Below, piece by piece: positions 3,232-55,153 of a stretch of 56,479 bases of DNA. Every line of letters starts with the position of its first letter. Position 1 is the stretch's first letter. A program made the position numbers and the translations under genes. The notes under the pieces were generated by a model, which was given only the letters and a program-made list of their open reading frames with translations, did not search any database and was not told where the DNA came from. Location: the IMG/VR virus record IMGVR_UViG_3300044730_001415, positions 1-56,479 of that record, one strand, 5' to 3'. This stretch comes from a virus. Lineage: Duplodnaviria > Caudoviricetes.

Positions 3232-3429
3232 ATGCAGAACGACGTCACCGAGACCGTCGCTGATACCTTCATCGAGATCACCCCCAAAGGCGCGATCGCC
3301 ACTGCCCTCATGGGTGTCGGCGCGTACGTCGTGGGGAGGACCTTGGTGCGTGGTATCCGCGCTCGGAAGCCGAAGACCTCGCCCCTGCCCCCGCCCGCTC
3401 CAGTGATCATCGAGACCACTGCCCGATAG
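3232..3429 (+). CDS. cassette small membrane protein
   Basis: AAGGAG RBS; hydrophobic AIATALMGVGAYVVG followed by basic, Pro-rich tail. Confidence 0.7.
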   Translation: MQNDVTETVADTFIEITPKGAIATALMGVGAYVVGRTLVRGIRARKPKTSPLPPPAPVIIETTAR

Positions 3430-3535: not shown

Positions 3536-3688
3536 ATGCTCAAGAAGAAGACCGCAGACCTCACCGTCGGTGAGTCACTGGTGTTCGGAGTCGTGACAAC
3601 CATCGTCATGACCGCGATCACCGTTGGCCCGCTCATGGTGACCGGATACCTGGTCGACCGCAAGCAGAAGAAGTCCAAGAAGGCGTGA
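3536..3688 (+). CDS. cassette small membrane protein (50 aa, not in ORF track)
   Basis: AAGGAG RBS; MLKKKTADLTVGESLVFGVVTTIVMTAITVGPLMVTGYLVDRKQKKSKKA. Confidence 0.7.
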   Translation: MLKKKTADLTVGESLVFGVVTTIVMTAITVGPLMVTGYLVDRKQKKSKKA

Positions 3689-7226: not shown

Positions 7227-7755
7227 ACATGCCCTTTTGAGCCCAAGCAGTTATCACTGGATTAATTATAACGAACAAAAGCTAACGGCTCGTTACTATT
7301 CGGCGGCACAAGCAGCACGCGGCGTTGCTTTACACGAATATGCGCAAACTGCGATAAAGCTAGGAATAAAACAACCAAGAAGCAGTAAGACACTGTATGC
7401 TTACATCAATGATGCAATAAATTATAAGATGAAACCAGAACAAGCGCTCTATTACTCAGACAACTGCTTTGGTACCGCAGATGCAATAAGCTTCCGTAAT
7501 GGTAAGCTTAGAATTCACGATTTAAAAACAGGAATATCAAAAACATCCGAACATCAACTTGAGATCTATGCGGCGTTGTTTTGTCTTGAATATGGCGTGT
7601 CTCCGTTTGAGATAGACATAGAACTTCGCATCTATCAAAACAATGACGTATCTATATTTGTTGCAGACCCCGAAGAAATTCTAACAATCATGAATACGAT
7701 TATTGATTTCGATCGTCACGTTGAATACTTAAAGGAGAACGACCTTGATTATTGA
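7192..7755 (+). CDS. Cas4/RecB-like PD-(D/E)xK exonuclease
   Basis: HALLSPS, G..LH, FGTADAI, IHDLKTG, QLEIYA. Confidence 0.78.
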   Translation: MNFNTHSALRGKHALLSPSSYHWINYNEQKLTARYYSAAQAARGVALHEYAQTAIKLGIKQPRSSKTLYAYINDAINYKMKPEQALYYSDNCFGTADAISFRNGKLRIHDLKTGISKTSEHQLEIYAALFCLEYGVSPFEIDIELRIYQNNDVSIFVADPEEILTIMNTIIDFDRHVEYLKENDLDY

Positions 7756-10489
7756 TGAGGATGAATACAAAGACTATTTGGCTCACTACGGGATTTTGCG
7801 TAAGTCTGGACGTTACCCTTGGGGTTCTGGCGGAGAAGAAATACACTATACAGAGTTTCTCAGCACTGTTGATTCTTTAAAGAAACAAGGGCTTTCGGAG
7901 ACTGCTATTGCGGCAGGCCTTGGTATGAACACGTCCGAGCTTCGAGCTCGAAAGTCAATTGCTAAGAACGAACAAAAACAAGCACGTATCGATCAGGCTT
8001 GGGGCTTAAAAGATAAGGGCGTAAGCACGTCTGAAATCGGTAGGATTATGGGTATTCCAGAATCTACTGTTCGAACGTTACTCGTCCCCGGCGAGAAAGA
8101 CAAGTTGGACCGACTTCAGTCAGTTACCAACATGTTGAAAAAAGAGGTCGATCAAAAAAAGTATCTCGACGTAGGCGATAACACTTGGTTGCATCAAGGC
8201 GTATCAGAAACAACCTGGCGCAATGCGGTTGCCTTGGCTAGAGAAGAAGGCTACACAAAACATTACGTTCGAGTGCTTCAGCTTGGTACCGGAAAAGAAA
8301 CTACAGTTAAAGTGTTAGCCGGCCCTGGAGTGAAAACGTCAGAAGTCAGAAAAAATCAAGACCTCATTCGACAAGTTCAGAATTTCTCTGATGACGGCGG
8401 TAGATCTTTCTTTGGGTTGCTGCCTCCGCTCAAAATAGATCCAAAACGAGTGGACGTAGTTTATAAAGAACAAGGCGGAGATAAACTTGACGGCGTAATA
8501 TATGTGCGCCAAGGCGTTAAAGATGTTTCTCTGGGCGATGCTCGCTACGCACAAGTTCGAATCGCGGTTGGTGATGGGCATTATATGAAGGGTATGGCTA
8601 TGTATAAAGAGGATCTGCCCAAGGGCATTGATCTTCAATTCAACACAAATAAAAGCGATACCGGAAATAAACTTGATGCACTTAAACCAGTAAAGCGTAC
8701 GGGAGAAGGCGACGTTGATGAGGCTAACCCGTTCGGTTCTATAGTTCGACAAATCGTGGCTAGAGAATCAGATGGTAAGCAGTATTTAACTGGATATGGC
8801 AAGAACCTGACTGATGGTACAGAAAAAGTGATCTCTGCCATGAACATTGTGCATGAAGAAGGAAACTGGTCGAACTGGTCAGACACCCTGTCTAAACAAG
8901 TACTATCTAAGCAAAGCACAAAATTAGCAAAAACACAGTTGGACATGACGTATGAGAGTAAGGAAGCAGAATTCAAAGAAATCGCTAAGCTTACTAACCC
9001 GGCCGTTCGAAAGCTACTTTTAGAAAAGCTAGCTGATGATGTTGATTCTTCAGCAGTACATTTGAAGGCCGCTGCGTTAAAGGGTCAAGGGACTCACGTC
9101 ATTCTTCCGATTGGCTCTATGCCCCCGAGTCAAGTTTATGCGCCGAATTACCTTGATGGAACAAAAGTCGTGTTAATTCGATTCCCGCATGGTGGCACTT
9201 TTGAGATTCCAGAATTGACGGTGAACAACAAGCAACCCGAAGCAAAGCGATTGCTGAAGGACGCACGAGATGCGATTGGCATTCATCACTCCGTTGCCGA
9301 AAGGTTGTCTGGCGCAGACTTCGATGGCGACACGGTACTCGTAATACCAAATGACGGCCCTGTTTCTAAAAGAATAGATACAACACGAGCACTGGAAGAC
9401 TTACAAGGGTTTGACCCAAGAAGTTCTTATCGTCGTTATGAGGGCATGAAAGTTATGACCGCACGCGAAAAAGGACTCGAGATGGGTCTCGTGTCAAACT
9501 TAATTACTGACATGACTTTACGAGGCGCGTCTAGAAGCGAACTAGCTAGAGCAATTAAACACTCAATGGTAGTCATTGATGCTGAGAAACACGAACTAAA
9601 CTATAAGCAATCGGCGATAGACAATGGCATTCCCGCATTAAAAGCTAAGTATCAAGGTGGACCAACCGCCGGTGCATCCACTCTAATCTCGTTATCAAAC
9701 CAACAGCTTAGAGTCCCCGACCTCAAACCAAGGCGGGCGCAAGATGGTGGACCAATAGACAAAGCTACGGGCAAAAGGGTATTTGATCCGGCATCTGCTG
9801 AAACTTTTGTTAATAGCAAAGGAAAACAAAACGTAAGAACAAGGCAGTCGGTTAGGCTCGCGGAGACCGACGATGCGTTTACTTTAATTAAAAATACCCC
9901 CACCCAAATTGAAAAGGTATACGCTGAGCATTCTAACAAACTAAAGAACCTTGCTAATGAAATCAGATTAGAGCAAATCAATACCCCCAATGTGGTGAGG
10001 TCGCCATCTGCAGCCAAAGTTTATAAGAAAGAAGTAGATTCCCTGACAGCTAAGCTTCGCATAGCTGAAAGAAACGCCCCCCTTGAAAGGCAGGCTCAGA
10101 TCTTTGCTAATGCTATTGTTCGTATGCGTCAAGCAGCCAATCCTGATATGGACAAAGAAACATTAAAGAAGGTTAAAACCCAGGCCCTAAATCAAGCCCG
10201 TACCCGAACAGGTGCAGGCAAGGATAAAATAGTCATCACTCCAGACGAGTGGAATGCCATTCAACAGGGTGCCGTGTCCAACACAAAACTCAATGAGATT
10301 CTAAGACAATCTGACATTGACGTAGTGCGACAGTTTGCTACACCAGTAAACAAAAAGATTATGACTTCTAATAAAGTTGTAAGAGCCAAGCAAATGTTGG
10401 CCAGTGGCTACACAAGAGCCGAAGTCGCAGCAAAGTTTGGTATCTCTTTAACAACACTAGACACTGCAGTAAACGAGTCCGAGGCTTAG
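7745..10489 (+). CDS. putative single-subunit double-psi-beta-barrel RNA polymerase with HTH domains
   Basis: LSGADFDGDT catalytic-type motif (nt 9317-9331), RFP, QVRI...KG, GLVSNL, HSMVVIDAEKH; HTH-like segments near both termini. Confidence 0.72.
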   Translation: MIIDEDEYKDYLAHYGILRKSGRYPWGSGGEEIHYTEFLSTVDSLKKQGLSETAIAAGLGMNTSELRARKSIAKNEQKQARIDQAWGLKDKGVSTSEIGRIMGIPESTVRTLLVPGEKDKLDRLQSVTNMLKKEVDQKKYLDVGDNTWLHQGVSETTWRNAVALAREEGYTKHYVRVLQLGTGKETTVKVLAGPGVKTSEVRKNQDLIRQVQNFSDDGGRSFFGLLPPLKIDPKRVDVVYKEQGGDKLDGVIYVRQGVKDVSLGDARYAQVRIAVGDGHYMKGMAMYKEDLPKGIDLQFNTNKSDTGNKLDALKPVKRTGEGDVDEANPFGSIVRQIVARESDGKQYLTGYGKNLTDGTEKVISAMNIVHEEGNWSNWSDTLSKQVLSKQSTKLAKTQLDMTYESKEAEFKEIAKLTNPAVRKLLLEKLADDVDSSAVHLKAAALKGQGTHVILPIGSMPPSQVYAPNYLDGTKVVLIRFPHGGTFEIPELTVNNKQPEAKRLLKDARDAIGIHHSVAERLSGADFDGDTVLVIPNDGPVSKRIDTTRALEDLQGFDPRSSYRRYEGMKVMTAREKGLEMGLVSNLITDMTLRGASRSELARAIKHSMVVIDAEKHELNYKQSAIDNGIPALKAKYQGGPTAGASTLISLSNQQLRVPDLKPRRAQDGGPIDKATGKRVFDPASAETFVNSKGKQNVRTRQSVRLAETDDAFTLIKNTPTQIEKVYAEHSNKLKNLANEIRLEQINTPNVVRSPSAAKVYKKEVDSLTAKLRIAERNAPLERQAQIFANAIVRMRQAANPDMDKETLKKVKTQALNQARTRTGAGKDKIVITPDEWNAIQQGAVSNTKLNEILRQSDIDVVRQFATPVNKKIMTSNKVVRAKQMLASGYTRAEVAAKFGISLTTLDTAVNESEA

Positions 10490-20394: not shown

Positions 20395-20427
20395 AGTCAA
20401 AGCTAACAAATAGAAAGGAGGTATATT

Positions 20428-50899: not shown

Positions 50900-51397
50900 A
50901 TGAACAGACAAGTGTTTGTAATCCCACACGATCAATTCGAAGAAGTTGATCACCCCGAAGAAGTCACAGAGCAATCGCTTCTTTCAGTTGTTCGATGCCT
51001 CGTTGCAGAAAGTCCTGAAAAAAAGCGAATTAGCTACCCGGCCTTCTACGCAATTCCGCTGGACATCGATCAGAAACCGATCGGCGAAACGCATAGCATC
51101 TATCCCGGCGACGTGGATGACCGCTATAAAACATTCATGGAAGTGCTCGACAACGCCTGCTACATCAGTGGCTTGTTCAAAAGAATGTACGGGTTCGGCG
51201 AGGATAACGACCCTGTGATCGACAGCTTTGTCTACGTCGTTTCCACGCAGTACGGTTTTGATATTCACGACATGCGAGCTCTGAGTTTGGCGCTAACGTG
51301 TATGAATGCGATTCCGGATAACGTCCACATCTCGGCGTTTGTTGTATCGACGGACATTGATTTCTACATCATCCCGTCATTTACGTCGTTGACGTAG
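50900..51397 (+). CDS. hypothetical protein
   Basis: AAGGAG RBS, 165 aa. Confidence 0.65.
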   Translation: MNRQVFVIPHDQFEEVDHPEEVTEQSLLSVVRCLVAESPEKKRISYPAFYAIPLDIDQKPIGETHSIYPGDVDDRYKTFMEVLDNACYISGLFKRMYGFGEDNDPVIDSFVYVVSTQYGFDIHDMRALSLALTCMNAIPDNVHISAFVVSTDIDFYIIPSFTSLT

Positions 51398-51406
51398 TAA
51401 TGGTTC

Positions 51407-51490
51407 GGAAGCTAGCATGGTGCCAGATGTGACAAACCACTTGAGTTGTCAAAGAACAACATCTGATGGGTTCGATTCCCTAAGCTTCCA
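51407..51490 (+). ncRNA. tRNA-like element (non-canonical)
   Basis: Acceptor GGAAGCT/AGCTTCC-A, GGG-TTCGATT-CCC T-arm, minimal D-arm, elongated CAGATGT/ACATCTG stem in place of an anticodon arm. Confidence 0.6.
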
Positions 51491-51500
51491 CTGAAATCTA

Positions 51501-51595
51501 GTTGGTCAAGTGTCGGTAAAGGTCATATTCCGCTTACGAACTACGTAGCGCACGACGTAGGAGTGATGGCACTATATAGGGTATGACTACCAACA
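51501..51595 (+). ncRNA. candidate pseudoknotted RNA
   Basis: GTTGGT/ACCAAC; AGTGTCG/TGGCACT crossing GTCATATTC/GGGTATGAC; inner CTACGT/ACGTAG. Confidence 0.45.
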
Positions 51596-51623
51596 CATTT
51601 TCAAAACTAATCAAAGGAGAAGC

Positions 51624-51836
51624 ATGAAGCAAATTGTCCAAGACACGCTGGTGTACATCGTTGAGTTTGAGCAGCTTCCAAAACTCCCGATCGCCGCCAA
51701 TGATGAAAGTGAAGTTCCGTACGCAATGGCTCTTCAAAACGCCATTGAAGTTGGCATCATAACCAAGGGTGGAAAGTACGGAATTCACATAAACCCAAAC
51801 TCGATGAGTTACATGGTTTATGCAATCGTCGACTGA
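51624..51836 (+). CDS. hypothetical protein
   Basis: AAGGAG RBS; its stop codon lies inside the P1 loop of pistol 1. Confidence 0.65.
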   Translation: MKQIVQDTLVYIVEFEQLPKLPIAANDESEVPYAMALQNAIEVGIITKGGKYGIHINPNSMSYMVYAIVD

Positions 51837-52046
51837 GCGACGTTAAATAGGCCTTTAGGCTCAGAGCGGTATCCCAGGAAGCTGTTCCGTATGACAGCGG
51901 GTTTTTAAGACGTAAAATCTCAACATAGGCAGGACTCTTTGCGTACACGTCGCGAAATCAGCATGAGAGAAAGTAACCGAGAAACTGACTTAACTACGTA
52001 AATTTAGAGTGCGCACTCTTTAGACTCGTAGCTGGGATACATAGGT
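51827..52046 (+). ncRNA. pistol-type self-cleaving ribozyme 1 with ~154-nt insert in the P3 loop
   Basis: CGTCG-ACTGAG-CGACG-TTAAATAG-GCCT-TTAGG-CTCAGA-GCG-GTATCCCAG ... CTGGGATAC-AT-AGGT; same register as the env25 pistol as recalled. Confidence 0.8.
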
Positions 52047-52049
52047 AAC

Positions 52050-52231
52050 CGTCGACTGAGCGACGTTAAACAGGCCTTTAGGCTCAGAGCGGTGTGGGTT
52101 GTGTTCGTAGCACATAAAGCAGATAAGAGGACCGACAGGCGTTAGCAAACGCTTATGGTTTCCGGCATATCATCCTTGGTTTGATATGTACGAGGGATAC
52201 TACGAGTTACCCCTGCTTCCCACACATAGGC
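52050..52231 (+). ncRNA. pistol-type self-cleaving ribozyme 2 with ~120-nt insert in the P3 loop
   Basis: Same 42-nt core (one T>C change); P3 GTGTGGG/CCCACAC; AT; AGGC pairs with GCCT. Confidence 0.82.
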
Positions 52232-52612
52232 ATTCCGTATTCGTGTTGCAATGACGGTTGCAACAAATATGGTAAGATATTCTAGGTGTCCCTGGTATAG
52301 CGCCTAGAATCAAAGCCTTTATTATACCAGTAGGTGTCCAATACGCCTAAACCAAGCCGATCGCGACGGCAATTGGAACCGCGATACTCAGGCGGTATAG
52401 CTTACGGCGTTTCCCGTAAGACACCACTTTGGTGAAATGTAGAGCGGCGTCGACGGTACGCGGCAGCAGAAAACCGGAAGGGAGCCCCAGTCCCCTTATA
52501 CCGAAGCCTTTATGGCAACTGGCGGATCTGTTGAAAAACAGACAGAGTATTGAGCGCGCTGACAGATGATTTACCTCCTTTAATCGTCTGTCGGCGCTGC
52601 TCTACTTTGTGT
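52232..52612 (+). ncRNA. large multi-pseudoknot noncoding RNA candidate
   Basis: ORF-free; consecutive hairpins, three loop-downstream pairings, and a terminal long hairpin with loop TACCTCCTTT. Confidence 0.62.
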
Positions 52613-52619
52613 ATTTTTC

Positions 52620-52692
52620 GCCTCTTTAGCTCAGTCGGTAGAGCAGTGGACTTTTAATCCATTGGTCGTGGGTTCGAACCCCACAGGAGGCA
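52620..52692 (+). tRNA. tRNA-Lys(UUU)
   Basis: GCCTCTT/AGGAGGC acceptor; GTGGA-CTTTTAA-TCCAT; GGTTCGAACC; no encoded CCA. Confidence 0.92.
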
Positions 52693-52723
52693 CTCACCAA
52701 CCACAACAGAAAGGAACGAACGC

Positions 52724-52906
52724 ATGGTTCGTTTTTACGCCCCGGCAAATCTTTGGATTTCCTCCAGAAATCGCGACGACCAGGGAATGCCATCCGGAAA
52801 TTTGGATGGGCATATCTGGGCGGACGTCTGTCAGTGCGTCGAATGTAAAGACGCATACGTTTCGTCCTCTGGAGTAAACATCCAAAATGTTCGAGACTTG
52901 AAATAG
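52724..52906 (+). CDS. small CxxC protein
   Basis: AAGGA upstream; VCQCVEC. Confidence 0.5.
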   Translation: MVRFYAPANLWISSRNRDDQGMPSGNLDGHIWADVCQCVECKDAYVSSSGVNIQNVRDLK

Positions 52907-52912
52907 TCTCGC

Positions 52913-52939
52913 AAACCTGAGCATGTTTTAAAACTGCTC
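52913..52939 (+). other. 27-nt H-type pseudoknot motif
   Basis: AAAC-CTGAGCAT-GTTT-TAAAAC-TGCTC. Confidence 0.7.
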
Positions 52940-52967
52940 ACTCACCAACCACAACCAAGGAGGAGTA

Positions 52968-53165
52968 ATGAAAGCCATCAACATCAACCGGACAACTCAG
53001 CGTTATATTGCTGAGATGTACAACGAAGGGGTTGTGCCTCAGATAGAAGTGGAACCAACGTACTATATCGTTGTTGATGACGGTCCAAATCTGATCGTCG
53101 ACAGACACGAGTACGTTCGCGTCTGGAAAGACAAAGTCGACGTGGACATCATCGCGGTTGTCTGA
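52968..53165 (+). CDS. hypothetical protein
   Basis: AGGAGG RBS. Confidence 0.7.
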   Translation: MKAININRTTQRYIAEMYNEGVVPQIEVEPTYYIVVDDGPNLIVDRHEYVRVWKDKVDVDIIAVV

Positions 53166-53172
53166 GGTTTTG

Positions 53173-53199
53173 GAACCTGAGCATGTTTTAAAACTGCTC
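53173..53199 (+). other. 27-nt H-type pseudoknot motif
   Basis: GAAC-CTGAGCAT-GTTT-TAAAAC-TGCTC. Confidence 0.7.
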
Positions 53200-53253
53200 T
53201 CTTTTTCTTGTTGCACTTAATACCTAATCAACCCAAACAGGAGGAAACACCCA

Positions 53254-53547
53254 ATGGCCATTCCCGAGAACTTCGTGTTCATGAAGAACCCGCCAACAAA
53301 TAAAAGAGGTACCAAGAGCAAGTACGAATCCATTGCGGACGCCTGCCGACGGCATCCCAACATGTGGACTGTCTTCAACACTGACGTCAGCTACGGAATG
53401 ACCACTGCCTTCAAAAAGCAGTTCCCCGGGTTCGAGTTCACGTCAAGAGCAAACCCGCCTGACGGCAACCGCACTACGGTGACCATCTACGGTCGATTTG
53501 TCGAAGAAGTCGACCTAGAACTGGAAGCGCTGCTGGACGAGGAATAA
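53254..53547 (+). CDS. hypothetical protein (possible DNA-binding)
   Basis: AGGAGG RBS; SKYESIA..C..HP..W...GFEFTSR...IYGRFV. Confidence 0.7.
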   Translation: MAIPENFVFMKNPPTNKRGTKSKYESIADACRRHPNMWTVFNTDVSYGMTTAFKKQFPGFEFTSRANPPDGNRTTVTIYGRFVEEVDLELEALLDEE

Positions 53548-53554
53548 ATCTCGA

Positions 53555-53581
53555 AAACCTGAGCATGTTTTAAAACTGCTC
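53555..53581 (+). other. 27-nt H-type pseudoknot motif
   Basis: AAAC-CTGAGCAT-GTTT-TAAAAC-TGCTC, 4 nt before tRNA-Ile. Confidence 0.7.
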
Positions 53582-53585
53582 GCCC

Positions 53586-53659
53586 ATCCCCATAGCTCAG
53601 TTGGTTAGAGCAGCATCCTTATAAGATGCAGGTCACGGGTTCAAGCCCCGTTGGGGATA
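53586..53659 (+). tRNA. tRNA-Ile(UAU)
   Basis: ATCCCCA/TGGGGAT acceptor; GCATC-CTTATAA-GATGC; ACGGG-TTCAAGC-CCCGT. Confidence 0.88.
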
Positions 53660-53663
53660 CTGA

Positions 53664-53734
53664 AAGTAAAAATCGTGGGTGCTACGTCGACGAGACCGTA
53701 CAGTCTGGTAAAAAACAGTCAGGCCACCCACACA
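53664..53734 (+). repeat. 71-bp direct repeat copy 1 (three-way-junction RNA candidate)
   Basis: Two differences from 54198-54268; GTGGGTG/CACCCAC closing stem. Confidence 0.85.
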
Positions 53735-53752
53735 TTCAAAAAGGAGAAAACA

Positions 53753-54199
53753 ATGAAGCTTAACGTGTTCAAGTACATCAAAGAAGTTCTTGATGAGAAC
53801 CACGACGATGGTACCATCGTAGAAAACGTAGAAAAGCTCGAGAGTTCGGTAATTGGTCGCCGGATTGTTTCTGCAGAACGCCAACAGATCAAATCGCGGG
53901 GTTCTTACTGGAGAACAGGATCAACAGTCTTTGTGATCACTCTTGATAATGGCGATCAAGTGCAGTTATTTGATACAGCAGATTGCTGCGCATACACGAC
54001 TCTTGAAAACTTTCTTCTTCACCCGCAAAGCGTTGACCACGTCATTCTTGGTGTTGGTACGACCGAAAAGTACACGACTTGGCATATCTATGCTGATTTT
54101 GGTGACATTCTTGCGCTTGAGGTTGATTGGTCTTGCGGTAATCCGTTTTACTACGGTTACGGCTTTGACATCAACGTTGTGAGTACGTCGTTCAGTTAA
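53753..54199 (+). CDS. hypothetical protein
   Basis: AAGGAG RBS before ATG 53753; DCCA...NPFYYGYGF; flanked by the direct repeats. Confidence 0.75.
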   Translation: MKLNVFKYIKEVLDENHDDGTIVENVEKLESSVIGRRIVSAERQQIKSRGSYWRTGSTVFVITLDNGDQVQLFDTADCCAYTTLENFLLHPQSVDHVILGVGTTEKYTTWHIYADFGDILALEVDWSCGNPFYYGYGFDINVVSTSFS

Positions 54200-54268
54200 G
54201 TAAAGATCGTGGGTGCTACGTCGACGAGACCGTACAGTCTGGTAAAAAACAGTCAGACCACCCACACA
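54198..54268 (+). repeat. 71-bp direct repeat copy 2
   Basis: Matches 53664-53734 at 69 of 71 positions. Confidence 0.85.
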
Positions 54269-54349
54269 AATATGGGGACAGTCCAAGAACCGTTAACACG
54301 CTTGCCGCGGAGGTGAGGATTGGTAGATGTATATACCTAACCCATATTT

Positions 54350-54422
54350 GCCGGATTAGCTCAGTTGGTAGAGCACCGCACTTGTAATGCGGTTGTCGCA
54401 GGTTCAATTCCTGCATCCGGCT
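54350..54422 (+). tRNA. tRNA-Thr(UGU)
   Basis: GCCGGAT/ATCCGGC acceptor; CCGCA-CTTGTAA-TGCGG; GCAGG-TTCAATT-CCTGC. Confidence 0.93.
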
Positions 54423-54444
54423 CTCAATTAGTAAAAGGAGAAAG

Positions 54445-54738
54445 ATGACAGAAATTAATTACGAAGAATACAACACCCGACGCGATGAGTTCTTCCATAG
54501 ACTCGAGTCGCTTTTGGCGGAATACCCAGACGTGATGACAAAACCAACGGTTGGGGATCATGAATACGATTGCGAATGTGATTACAACCCAGACGCTCCC
54601 AAAATGATCAGTGGTATGGTGATGATTGTTACCACTCGTGATGCTAACGATTGGGAGCAATTGTTTTGGGAAAAACCAAGTGGGCAATCATATTTCCACA
54701 CAATCGGAATGGTTCGAGAAGTTCTCGATTCAATGTGA
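54445..54738 (+). CDS. hypothetical protein
   Basis: AAGGAG RBS, 97 aa. Confidence 0.7.
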   Translation: MTEINYEEYNTRRDEFFHRLESLLAEYPDVMTKPTVGDHEYDCECDYNPDAPKMISGMVMIVTTRDANDWEQLFWEKPSGQSYFHTIGMVREVLDSM

Positions 54739-54753
54739 CTAACAAGGAGAGCA

Positions 54754-54891
54754 ATGAGCGTTCAAAAAGAGCGTGAAGCTGTTTTAAAAATTGGTTTGTT
54801 TCCCAACCAATGGAAAGAAAAAGTCAACAAAATGCCAGACAACCAAGTCTTGGCTATTTACCTTCGACTGAAGAGTCAGGGTAAACTTTAG
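54754..54891 (+). CDS. small conserved phage protein (45 aa, not in ORF track)
   Basis: AAGGAG RBS; W.EKV.KMPDNQV.AIY.RL. Confidence 0.65.
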   Translation: MSVQKEREAVLKIGLFPNQWKEKVNKMPDNQVLAIYLRLKSQGKL

Positions 54892-54899
54892 CCAAAAAT

Positions 54900-55037
54900 C
54901 TTCCACATTAATGTTTTGCCAGAGGTCTTGGTGTGGAAGCAATAAAACTTCTGGAGCGTACTAGGTCAAATCCTGAACCCCCCTTTCAAGGATTCCTGGA
55001 AATGTACGTGAGCTAGGGGATAAACCTAAGCCCTAGC
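54900..55037 (+). ncRNA. candidate pseudoknotted RNA upstream of tRNA-Leu
   Basis: CTTCCACATTAA/TTGGTGTGGAAG with loop CCAGAGGT pairing ACTTCTGG; CGTAC/GTACG; AATCCT/AGGATT; GCTAGGG/CCCTAGC. Confidence 0.5.
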
Positions 55038-55046
55038 ACCACACAA

Positions 55047-55129
55047 GCCTGGCTGGCGAAATGGCAGACGCAGGGGACTTAAAATCCCTCGATCATGTGA
55101 TCATCCGGGTTCGAGTCCCGGGCTAGGCA
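55047..55129 (+). tRNA. tRNA-Leu(UAA)
   Basis: GCCTGGC/GCTAGGC acceptor; loop CTTAAAA; long variable arm GATCA/TGATC; CCGGG-TTCGAGT-CCCGG. Confidence 0.92.
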
Positions 55130-55153
55130 CTGGCACTAATCACAAGGAGAAAT

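Follow-up and report, generated by a model that had tools for sequence, protein, structure and literature searches.

A predicted structured RNA beside Pistol ribozymes in freshwater phages ends in a hairpin that keeps an anti-Shine–Dalgarno core in its loop

The locus and its relatives

The window analyzed here, 56,479 bases long, represents an entire IMG/VR virus record with an estimated completeness of 94%. It carries siphovirus-type large genes (terminase, protease, tape measure, and primase-polymerase). The primase-polymerase shares 62% identity with those of Gordonia phages and 51–57% with those of Arthrobacter, Curtobacterium, and Streptomyces phages. Judged by this protein sequence, the phage is of actinophage type. 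Long, near-identical pieces of the region are present in four public runs, which belong to three freshwater or lake studies. Elsewhere in the genome, a 914-aa protein (7745–10489) could be aligned from end to end with PHROG 4291, a group that carries the label RNA-dependent RNA polymerase. The gene at this position in the gene order of Gordonia phage Petito is annotated only as a helix-turn-helix DNA-binding protein.

Three recovered sequences, referred to as the window, L003, and L037 types, were compared. A fourth variant was partly seen and is known only from contigs of public runs. The L003 type comprises two IMG/VR and two JGI contigs (loci L002, L003, L006, L035, L036, L039, and L040), and the L037 type comprises two JGI contigs (L037 and L038). 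Both types were found by protein- and pattern-based scans. The L003 type is 93–94% identical to the window over 52257–52700, has one Pistol ribozyme instead of two, and lacks 52046–52256. The L037 type has the Pistol ribozyme and a 166-nt spacer in common with the window (96% identity). Its copy of the 5′ domain described below is 82% identical, and its middle part is divergent.

Two Pistol ribozymes are located on the + strand of the window, 223 nt apart. The first (51827–51879) scored 41.4 bits with Rfam RF02679, whose gathering score is 34.5, and is conserved in all relatives. The second (52050–52112, 44.7 bits) is found in the window type only; 52046–52256 is absent from the L003 and L037 types, and a joint of 52045 to 52257 was seen in contigs of the public runs. 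Each sequenced relative type has one copy (L003:2696–2748 and L037:1003–1058). The L037 copy scored 25.8 bits, below the gathering score of 34.5, and its first hairpin is altered. In both window copies, the 3′ part fits the Rfam model poorly, and the first copy has lost the cleavage-site linker. The stop codon of an upstream ORF (51624–51836) falls in the first hairpin of the first copy. The L003 type carries a 470-nt insert, containing two small ORFs, that is joined exactly within the first hairpin of the Pistol ribozyme; therefore, the Pistol copies mark mosaic junctions.

The spacer after the first ribozyme (51880–52045, + strand) has a mean column identity of 96% across four aligned sequences. 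It is more conserved than the RNA domain that follows, for which the identity of the window to L037 is 82%. The spacer holds a terminator-like hairpin with a T-run (51881–51898) and a sigma-70-like site (51891–51918) with 10 of 12 matches. A similar arrangement was seen in a phage whose primase-polymerase is 59% identical (L009:11505–11900, also L007). There, a Pistol-like match precedes an ORF-free stretch of about 330 nt and a G+C-rich hairpin with a T-run, and this stretch has no visible relation to the RNA of the window. A Pistol ribozyme followed by a noncoding RNA (ncRNA) may be a recurring layout.

The tRNA set of the phage (Lys-UUU, Ile-UAU, Thr-UGU, and Leu-UAA; 52620–55130) decodes A-ending codons throughout. 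The tRNA-Lys (UUU) gene, identified with Rfam at 52620–52693 on the + strand, starts 9 nt past a long hairpin (52542–52610). The hairpin is followed by tRNA-Lys in the window and L003 types and not in the L037 type. A consensus scan found no promoter-like site in the gap between the hairpin and tRNA-Lys; therefore, the tRNA transcript must read through the hairpin.

Several other elements were noticed around the tRNA genes. A tRNA-like element (51407–51489) combines an acceptor stem of 7 bp with GGGTTCGATTCCC, which resembles a T-arm, and its arm on the anticodon side is very long. It scored 23.5 bits with the tRNA-Sec model (threshold 47), was not called by ARAGORN, and is about 98% conserved in L003-type relatives. 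A 17-nt motif occurs in three exact copies (52917–52933, 53177–53193, and 53559–53575; 0.26 expected), each inside a 45-nt hairpin-forming repeat. The first two copies lie just upstream of ribosome-binding sites (RBSs); the third extends to the first base of tRNA-Ile. This motif may serve as a phage promoter or mark a processing site. A 71-nt direct repeat with 97% identity is located 4 nt past tRNA-Ile (53664–53734) and about 80 nt before tRNA-Thr (54198–54268). Its fold is unexceptional (z −1.6), and an Rfam scan at E up to 5 gave no match.

A predicted structured RNA upstream of tRNA-Lys

Comparison of the recovered sequences indicated that the hairpin closes a structured phage ncRNA that had not been described before and spans at least about 385 nt (52235–52619). 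The region 52100–52620 folds well below its shuffles (z −5.35). The conserved 5′ domain (52235–52402, + strand) begins with stem P1 (52235–41/52266–72), followed by two pseudoknot stems (52279–86/52303–10 and 52292–99/52323–30) and three hairpins (52331–49, 52352–76, and 52378–96), all on the + strand and all subjected to the covariation test. Across these six helices, which include the crossing pair and contain 39 pairs, all 111 of 111 cells were paired, and seven pairs were changed on both sides. None of 500 shuffles equalled this result, and slid controls paired in 25–39% of cells. Since only three sequences were available, the covariation is supportive and is not proof.

Two further elements lie between the 5′ domain and the hairpin, both on the + strand. 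The first (52436–52464) contains the invariant GAAAUGUAGAGCGGCGU and a local hairpin (52444–50/52458–64), whose pairs are kept in all three sequences and whose loop differs in L037. The second (52476–52497) contains the invariant GGAAGGGAG (52476–84), which resembles a Shine–Dalgarno (SD) sequence and is paired locally with CCCCUU (52492–97). A coding role for the region was considered and rejected. The sole ORFs, of 46 aa (window) and 63 aa (L037), differ in their starts, and indels between variants break the frames.

The region was searched against several collections. Rfam (4227 families, cmscan, E up to 10) returned only tRNA and Pistol matches for 51300–53000, and L037 950–1760 gave the same null result. 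In these two scans, the model of the 6C sRNA had no match, and no further similarity to rRNA was found in 51300–53000. A blastn search of 51500–52700 against 50,697 phage genomes returned 311 records, none of which covered at least 80% of the query. Among the matches listed (40 of 311), the similarity was to the Pistol part or the tRNA only. Pattern scans of IMG/VR recovered only the two L003-type contigs, and a pattern scan of GTDB genomes recovered none. A covariance model of the 5′ domain (R1, matching 52247–52402) was run on 33 sources totalling 692 kb and matched only its own sources (the window, L037, and L038). R1 was absent from 28 IMG/VR loci of phages with 49–59% identical primase-polymerases, from Gordonia phage Petito, and from Siphovirus contig89. 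As far as sequence similarity can tell, the ncRNA is narrowly distributed, occurring only in a freshwater phage lineage in the collections searched.

Contigs from two metatranscriptome runs of one study covered the central domain of two variants, with depth up to 16–20. They are compatible with expression of the ncRNA; DNA carry-over is possible. These contigs stop at 52477–52486 and none lies over 52522–52623, and contig tables of this kind cannot show absence or ends.

The terminal hairpin and the alternative pairing of its 3′ arm

The terminal hairpin (52542–52610, + strand) contains 28 pairs between the arms 52542–52571 and 52582–52610, including three G·U pairs. It consists of an 8-bp base stem, a UU internal loop (52550–51), a GAGC/GCUC step, a bulged U (U52598), and a 16-bp upper stem. 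Its minimum free energy (MFE) is −41.6 kcal/mol (z −7.45). None of 200 shuffles was as stable, and the hairpin ranked third among 14,100 86-nt windows on both strands of the whole window. The preliminary description of this locus had proposed an interrupted hairpin of about 28 bp, and the fold bore this out, coordinates included. Other very stable windows (3265–3350 and 3561–3646) lie inside small G+C-rich ORFs and are unrelated to the hairpin.

A hairpin of largely different sequence is located at the same place in L037 (L037:1555–1643) and in L038. It is predicted at −41.9 kcal/mol, with none of 200 shuffles as stable. The two hairpins have in common the UU internal loop on the 5′ side, the GAGC/GCUC step, and a single-nucleotide bulge on the 3′ side. 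Twelve hairpin pairs could be aligned. All 36 of 36 cells were paired, and both sides were changed in six of the 12 pairs, all within the 8-bp base stem; 2 of 500 shuffles equalled this result. The only stem substitution in close relatives, G52593A in the L003 type, converts a U·G pair of the hairpin to U–A. Judged from these changes, the long stem is maintained by compensatory change.

Compensatory change would also preserve an inverted repeat in DNA, and mosaic junctions lie nearby. The hairpin could be a DNA-level palindrome and not an RNA element, for example a site bound by a protein, a hairpin used in replication or recombination, or a cruciform. The strand comparison speaks against this explanation. 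In the window, the + strand folds at −41.6 kcal/mol vs −31.3 kcal/mol for the − strand; in L037, the values are −41.9 and −35.0 kcal/mol. The + strand is thus better by 7–10 kcal/mol in both lineages, a difference that favors an RNA read from the + strand over a DNA palindrome. The G·U pairs of the hairpin exist in the + sense only: the other strand has A·C mismatches in place of the G·T pairs, of which the window has three and L037 at least two. Furthermore, the conserved asymmetric UU loop, the bulge, and the loop sequence are unexpected for a palindrome that binds a dimer. We consider a DNA palindrome extremely unlikely.

The 3′ arm of the hairpin can also be paired elsewhere. An alternative helix between 52439–52456 and 52588–52605 has 18 contiguous pairs, three of them G·U, and a duplex energy of −33.2 kcal/mol. 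When the upstream 429 nt were dinucleotide-shuffled 500 times, no shuffle reached this energy (best −28.0 kcal/mol); therefore, the helix is beyond chance in the window genome. The preliminary description had presented this helix as mutually exclusive with the hairpin. Its existence was upheld; its competitiveness and its conservation were not. Forcing the helix cost 11.7 kcal/mol, and its pair probabilities did not exceed 4 × 10⁻⁵. The corresponding duplex weakened to −26.0 kcal/mol in the L003 type and to −11.8 kcal/mol in the L037 type, the latter falling short of the shuffle mean (−18.9 kcal/mol).

A two-state RNA had been proposed on this basis, in which the 3′ arm toggles between the hairpin and the 18-bp helix with 52439–52456 and so exposes or hides the loop. 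The strength of the helix relative to its shuffles is what speaks for such a switch. However, the forced fold and its pair probabilities leave the hairpin as the predominant prediction, and the relatives do not keep the helix. G52593A breaks a C–G pair of the helix (to C·A) while improving the hairpin, the fourth variant has a 1-nt deletion at 52452 within the 5′ strand of the helix, and in all three sequences this 5′ strand sits in the conserved local hairpin at 52444–50/52458–64. A switch would call for a competitive helix and for its conservation or covariation in homologs, and neither was found. The two-state proposal was therefore abandoned, and we assign it an almost negligible probability. 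The excess complementarity to the 3′ arm is real, yet specific to the lineage of the window. Because the 5′ strand of the alternative helix resembles the 5′ arm of the hairpin itself, an old partial duplication is a possible source.

The apical loop and its possible partners

The apical loop UACCUCCUUU (52572–52581, + strand) is unpaired in both the MFE and centroid folds. Its core CCUCCU (52574–52579) is kept in all variants seen. The apical loops of the window, L003, and L037 types all contain CCUCCU; the L037 loop, GCCCCCUCCUA, is 11 nt long and again presents it unpaired at the tip. Conservation of the loop in homologs was the check that the preliminary description had called for, and the core passed it in three recovered hairpins, including that of L037 with its rewritten stem. 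The fourth variant (run X3, record 24, depth 22) pointed the same way. It has seven substitutions and one insertion at 52562–52570 in the upper 5′ arm, and the loop-closing positions 52572 and 52581 are changed, so that its loop reads CACCU at 52572–52576. ACCUCCUU (52573–52580) is untouched among the substitutions listed and stays intact beside this altered stem. The contig carries eight further substitutions (of 20), which probably lie within 30 nt of its end; from these, the 3′ arm of the fourth variant would compensate the changes in the 5′ arm.

The chance of CCUCCU in a random 11-nt loop is about 0.0015 if equal base frequencies are assumed. Retention of CCUCCU over a rewritten adjoining stem is unlikely without selection, indicating that the apical loop is likely to have a function. 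As two of the three full variants have the same loop, the loop conservation amounts to about two, at most three, independent comparisons in a narrow lineage. The flanks of the core vary among variants (UA..UU, CA..UG, and CCC..A), which argues against one extended specific target. A scan of the loci for CCTCC in apical loops proved unreliable, since it over-counted pairs and missed the L037 hairpin; it gave minus-strand hits in L034 and L019.

The loop sequence resembles the anti-SD end of 16S rRNA, as had been pointed out in the preliminary description. ACCTCCTTT consists of nine consecutive letters of the 16S tail string quoted there, a string that may not be that of the host. TACCTCCTTT occurs once on the + strand of the window. 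AAGGAG is found 33 times on the + strand vs four times on the − strand; therefore, the genome uses AAGGAG-type RBSs, in agreement with what had been claimed, and the loop complements them. CCTCC is found 15 times on the + strand, so the pentamer by itself is not rare. Complementarity between the loop and the RBSs at 20414, 30951, and 7729 spans 9–10 nt, which is no more than SD bias predicts. The loop is thus accessible, single-stranded, C-rich, complementary to SD sequences, and conserved among the homologs.

Two roles in cis were considered and rejected. The loop is not an RBS of the minus strand, on which no ATG, GTG, or TTG lies 5–10 nt downstream. A hairpin that sequesters an SD sequence in cis, which would have to pair with the SD and start codon of an ORF downstream, was ruled out because no SD-led ORF follows. 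In the window, the next feature is tRNA-Lys. In L037, a 95-nt spacer without a strong SD sequence separates the hairpin from ORF 1738.

The hairpin may have a role in which the loop sequence takes no part. If it serves only in processing, stability, or termination, it may be a double-stranded site of the RNase III type, a block to 3′ exonucleases, or a leaky terminator ahead of the tRNA. A 28-bp stem is long enough for processing by double-strand-specific enzymes, and the hairpin offers the roughly two helical turns of double-stranded RNA associated with RNase III sites, with 28 pairs interrupted by one 2-nt internal loop and one bulge. In the window, a U5 run begins 3 nt past the stem, and an A-run ahead of the stem lengthens the helix. 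In both lineages, the conserved RNA ends with this hairpin, and no promoter-like site separates it from the tRNA. However, the hairpin was not listed by the consensus terminator scan, a U-run is missing from the 8 nt after the stem in L037, and tRNA-Lys, 9 nt on, needs read-through. In addition, CCUCCU is kept while the upper stem is rewritten, which is unexpected of a neutral loop of 10–11 nt. This explanation appears rather unlikely to us.

Instead, we favor a reading that joins the stem and the loop, while giving it somewhat less than even chances. The hairpin would be the 3′-terminal stem-loop of a new phage ncRNA with one stable conformer, and its C-rich loop would act as a seed that pairs with an SD-like sequence. 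The RNA would be transcribed from the + strand, downstream of a Pistol ribozyme and, in the window genome, directly upstream of tRNA-Lys. Its ends would be set by the Pistol ribozyme together with RNase P or termination. After RNase P cleavage at the tRNA, or after termination, the long stem would cap and protect the 3′ end. The C-rich loop would then pair as a seed with G-rich, SD-like sequences. On the model of the actinobacterial 6C sRNA, the likeliest targets would be the RBSs of mRNAs in trans, and SD-dependent translation would be dampened or timed during infection. Several points speak against this reading: the targets in trans are candidates proposed from complementarity, a generic SD sponge would need very high abundance, the three full variants come from a narrow lineage, and an intramolecular role through GGAAGGGAG is an equally good fit.

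That internal partner leads to another explanation. CCUCCU might pair with the invariant GGAAGGGAG as a loop-to-strand pseudoknot that compacts the ncRNA, in which case the anti-SD likeness would be incidental. In each of the three variants, GGAAGGGAG ranks among the strongest partners that the loop has within the RNA, and the RNA already has one covarying pseudoknot. The duplex with the loop was calculated at −7.9, −7.9, and −9.8 kcal/mol in the three variants; these energies are modest and typical for any purine-rich stretch. Moreover, the loop core and GGAAGGGAG are both invariant, so no covariation supports the contact, and in every variant the fold predicts a local pairing of GGAAGGGAG with CCCCUU. 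We rate a tertiary contact as possible, yet rather improbable.

Seed pairing of the loop in trans can be compared with known sRNAs. One study describes that the 6C sRNA binds G-rich regions of mRNAs via C-rich loops and needs no chaperone for this (PMC6486639). The phage hairpin resembles the 6C sRNA in having a single-stranded C-rich apical loop on a stable stem, and the phage type provides an actinobacterial link. Unlike the 6C sRNA, it has one C-rich loop, not two or more, and does not match the Rfam model. The 6C sRNA is short and stands alone, whereas the phage hairpin ends a structured RNA of at least about 385 nt. The phage loop is the exact anti-SD core instead of a C-run; the L037 loop has both.

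In Firmicutes, sRNAs with C-rich seeds (RsaE/RoxS and the RNAIII hairpins) mask the SD sequences of their targets with C-rich or UCCC loops. The C-rich loop is common to these sRNAs and the phage RNA; there is no sequence or model match, and context, size, and organism differ. By analogy, the phage loop works like that of a C-rich-loop sRNA only in being accessible and conserved.

Other known elements were also compared. Terminators, 3′ protective hairpins, and RNase III sites have a long stable stem at the 3′ end in common with the phage hairpin, and the window has a U-run. Unlike them, the phage stem is much longer than usual, has a 10–11-nt loop with a conserved sequence, and is followed by a tRNA 9 nt on. 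GOLLD and ROOL are large phage-associated structured ncRNAs beside tRNA genes. The RNA of the window is likewise phage-borne, several hundred nucleotides long, and adjacent to a tRNA; it is smaller, Pistol-linked, and confined to a narrow freshwater lineage.

The likeness to the 16S 3′ tail raises the question of mimicry. ACCUCCUUU corresponds to nine letters of the quoted tail string and complements the AAGGAG-type RBSs of the phage. Unlike the free 3′ end of 16S rRNA, the phage anti-SD core lies in a closed hairpin loop, and only CCUCCU is kept among the variants. In one form of mimicry, the loop would decoy a protein that recognizes the anti-SD region, either a ribosome-associated factor or a toxin that cuts this region, and would so protect translation. 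The nine-letter match and the actinophage type of the phage are consistent with such a decoy, and actinobacterial toxins that cut the 16S anti-SD region exist. A RelE is said to cut the region likewise. According to another study, one mycobacterial MazF cleaves single-stranded C^ACCU just ahead of the 16S anti-SD (PMC12274833). The loop of the fourth variant has CACCU. However, the loops share CCUCCU alone; the window reads UACCU, and ACCU is absent from the L037 loop. We therefore regard the decoy as very unlikely. The broader proposal, in which the tip of a dedicated phage RNA imitates the 16S anti-SD tail and either titrates SD sequences, thereby changing the set of mRNAs that is translated, or decoys host factors or abortive-infection toxins, seems quite doubtful as well.

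With the switch removed, the question narrows to the pairing of the loop with its target. Masking of SD sequences by C-rich loops is an established mode of Gram-positive sRNAs. A phage RNA of several hundred nucleotides with a predicted pseudoknot that ends in a kept anti-SD core is undescribed in Rfam 15, in the 50,697 phage genomes, and in the full-text literature searched. The finding is broader than the hairpin, since it concerns a putative structured ncRNA that is linked to Pistol ribozymes in freshwater phages and retains the anti-SD core in its terminal loop. To our knowledge, the biological roles of Pistol ribozymes are still largely unknown; freeing a downstream ncRNA would give them a possible job. 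If the imitation of the 16S tail were true, the tip would be an RNA-based imitation of a ribosome part in phage–host conflict. An RNA bounded by a self-cleaving ribozyme and a tRNA would offer a small, concrete object for the study of how uncultured lake phages may tune translation.
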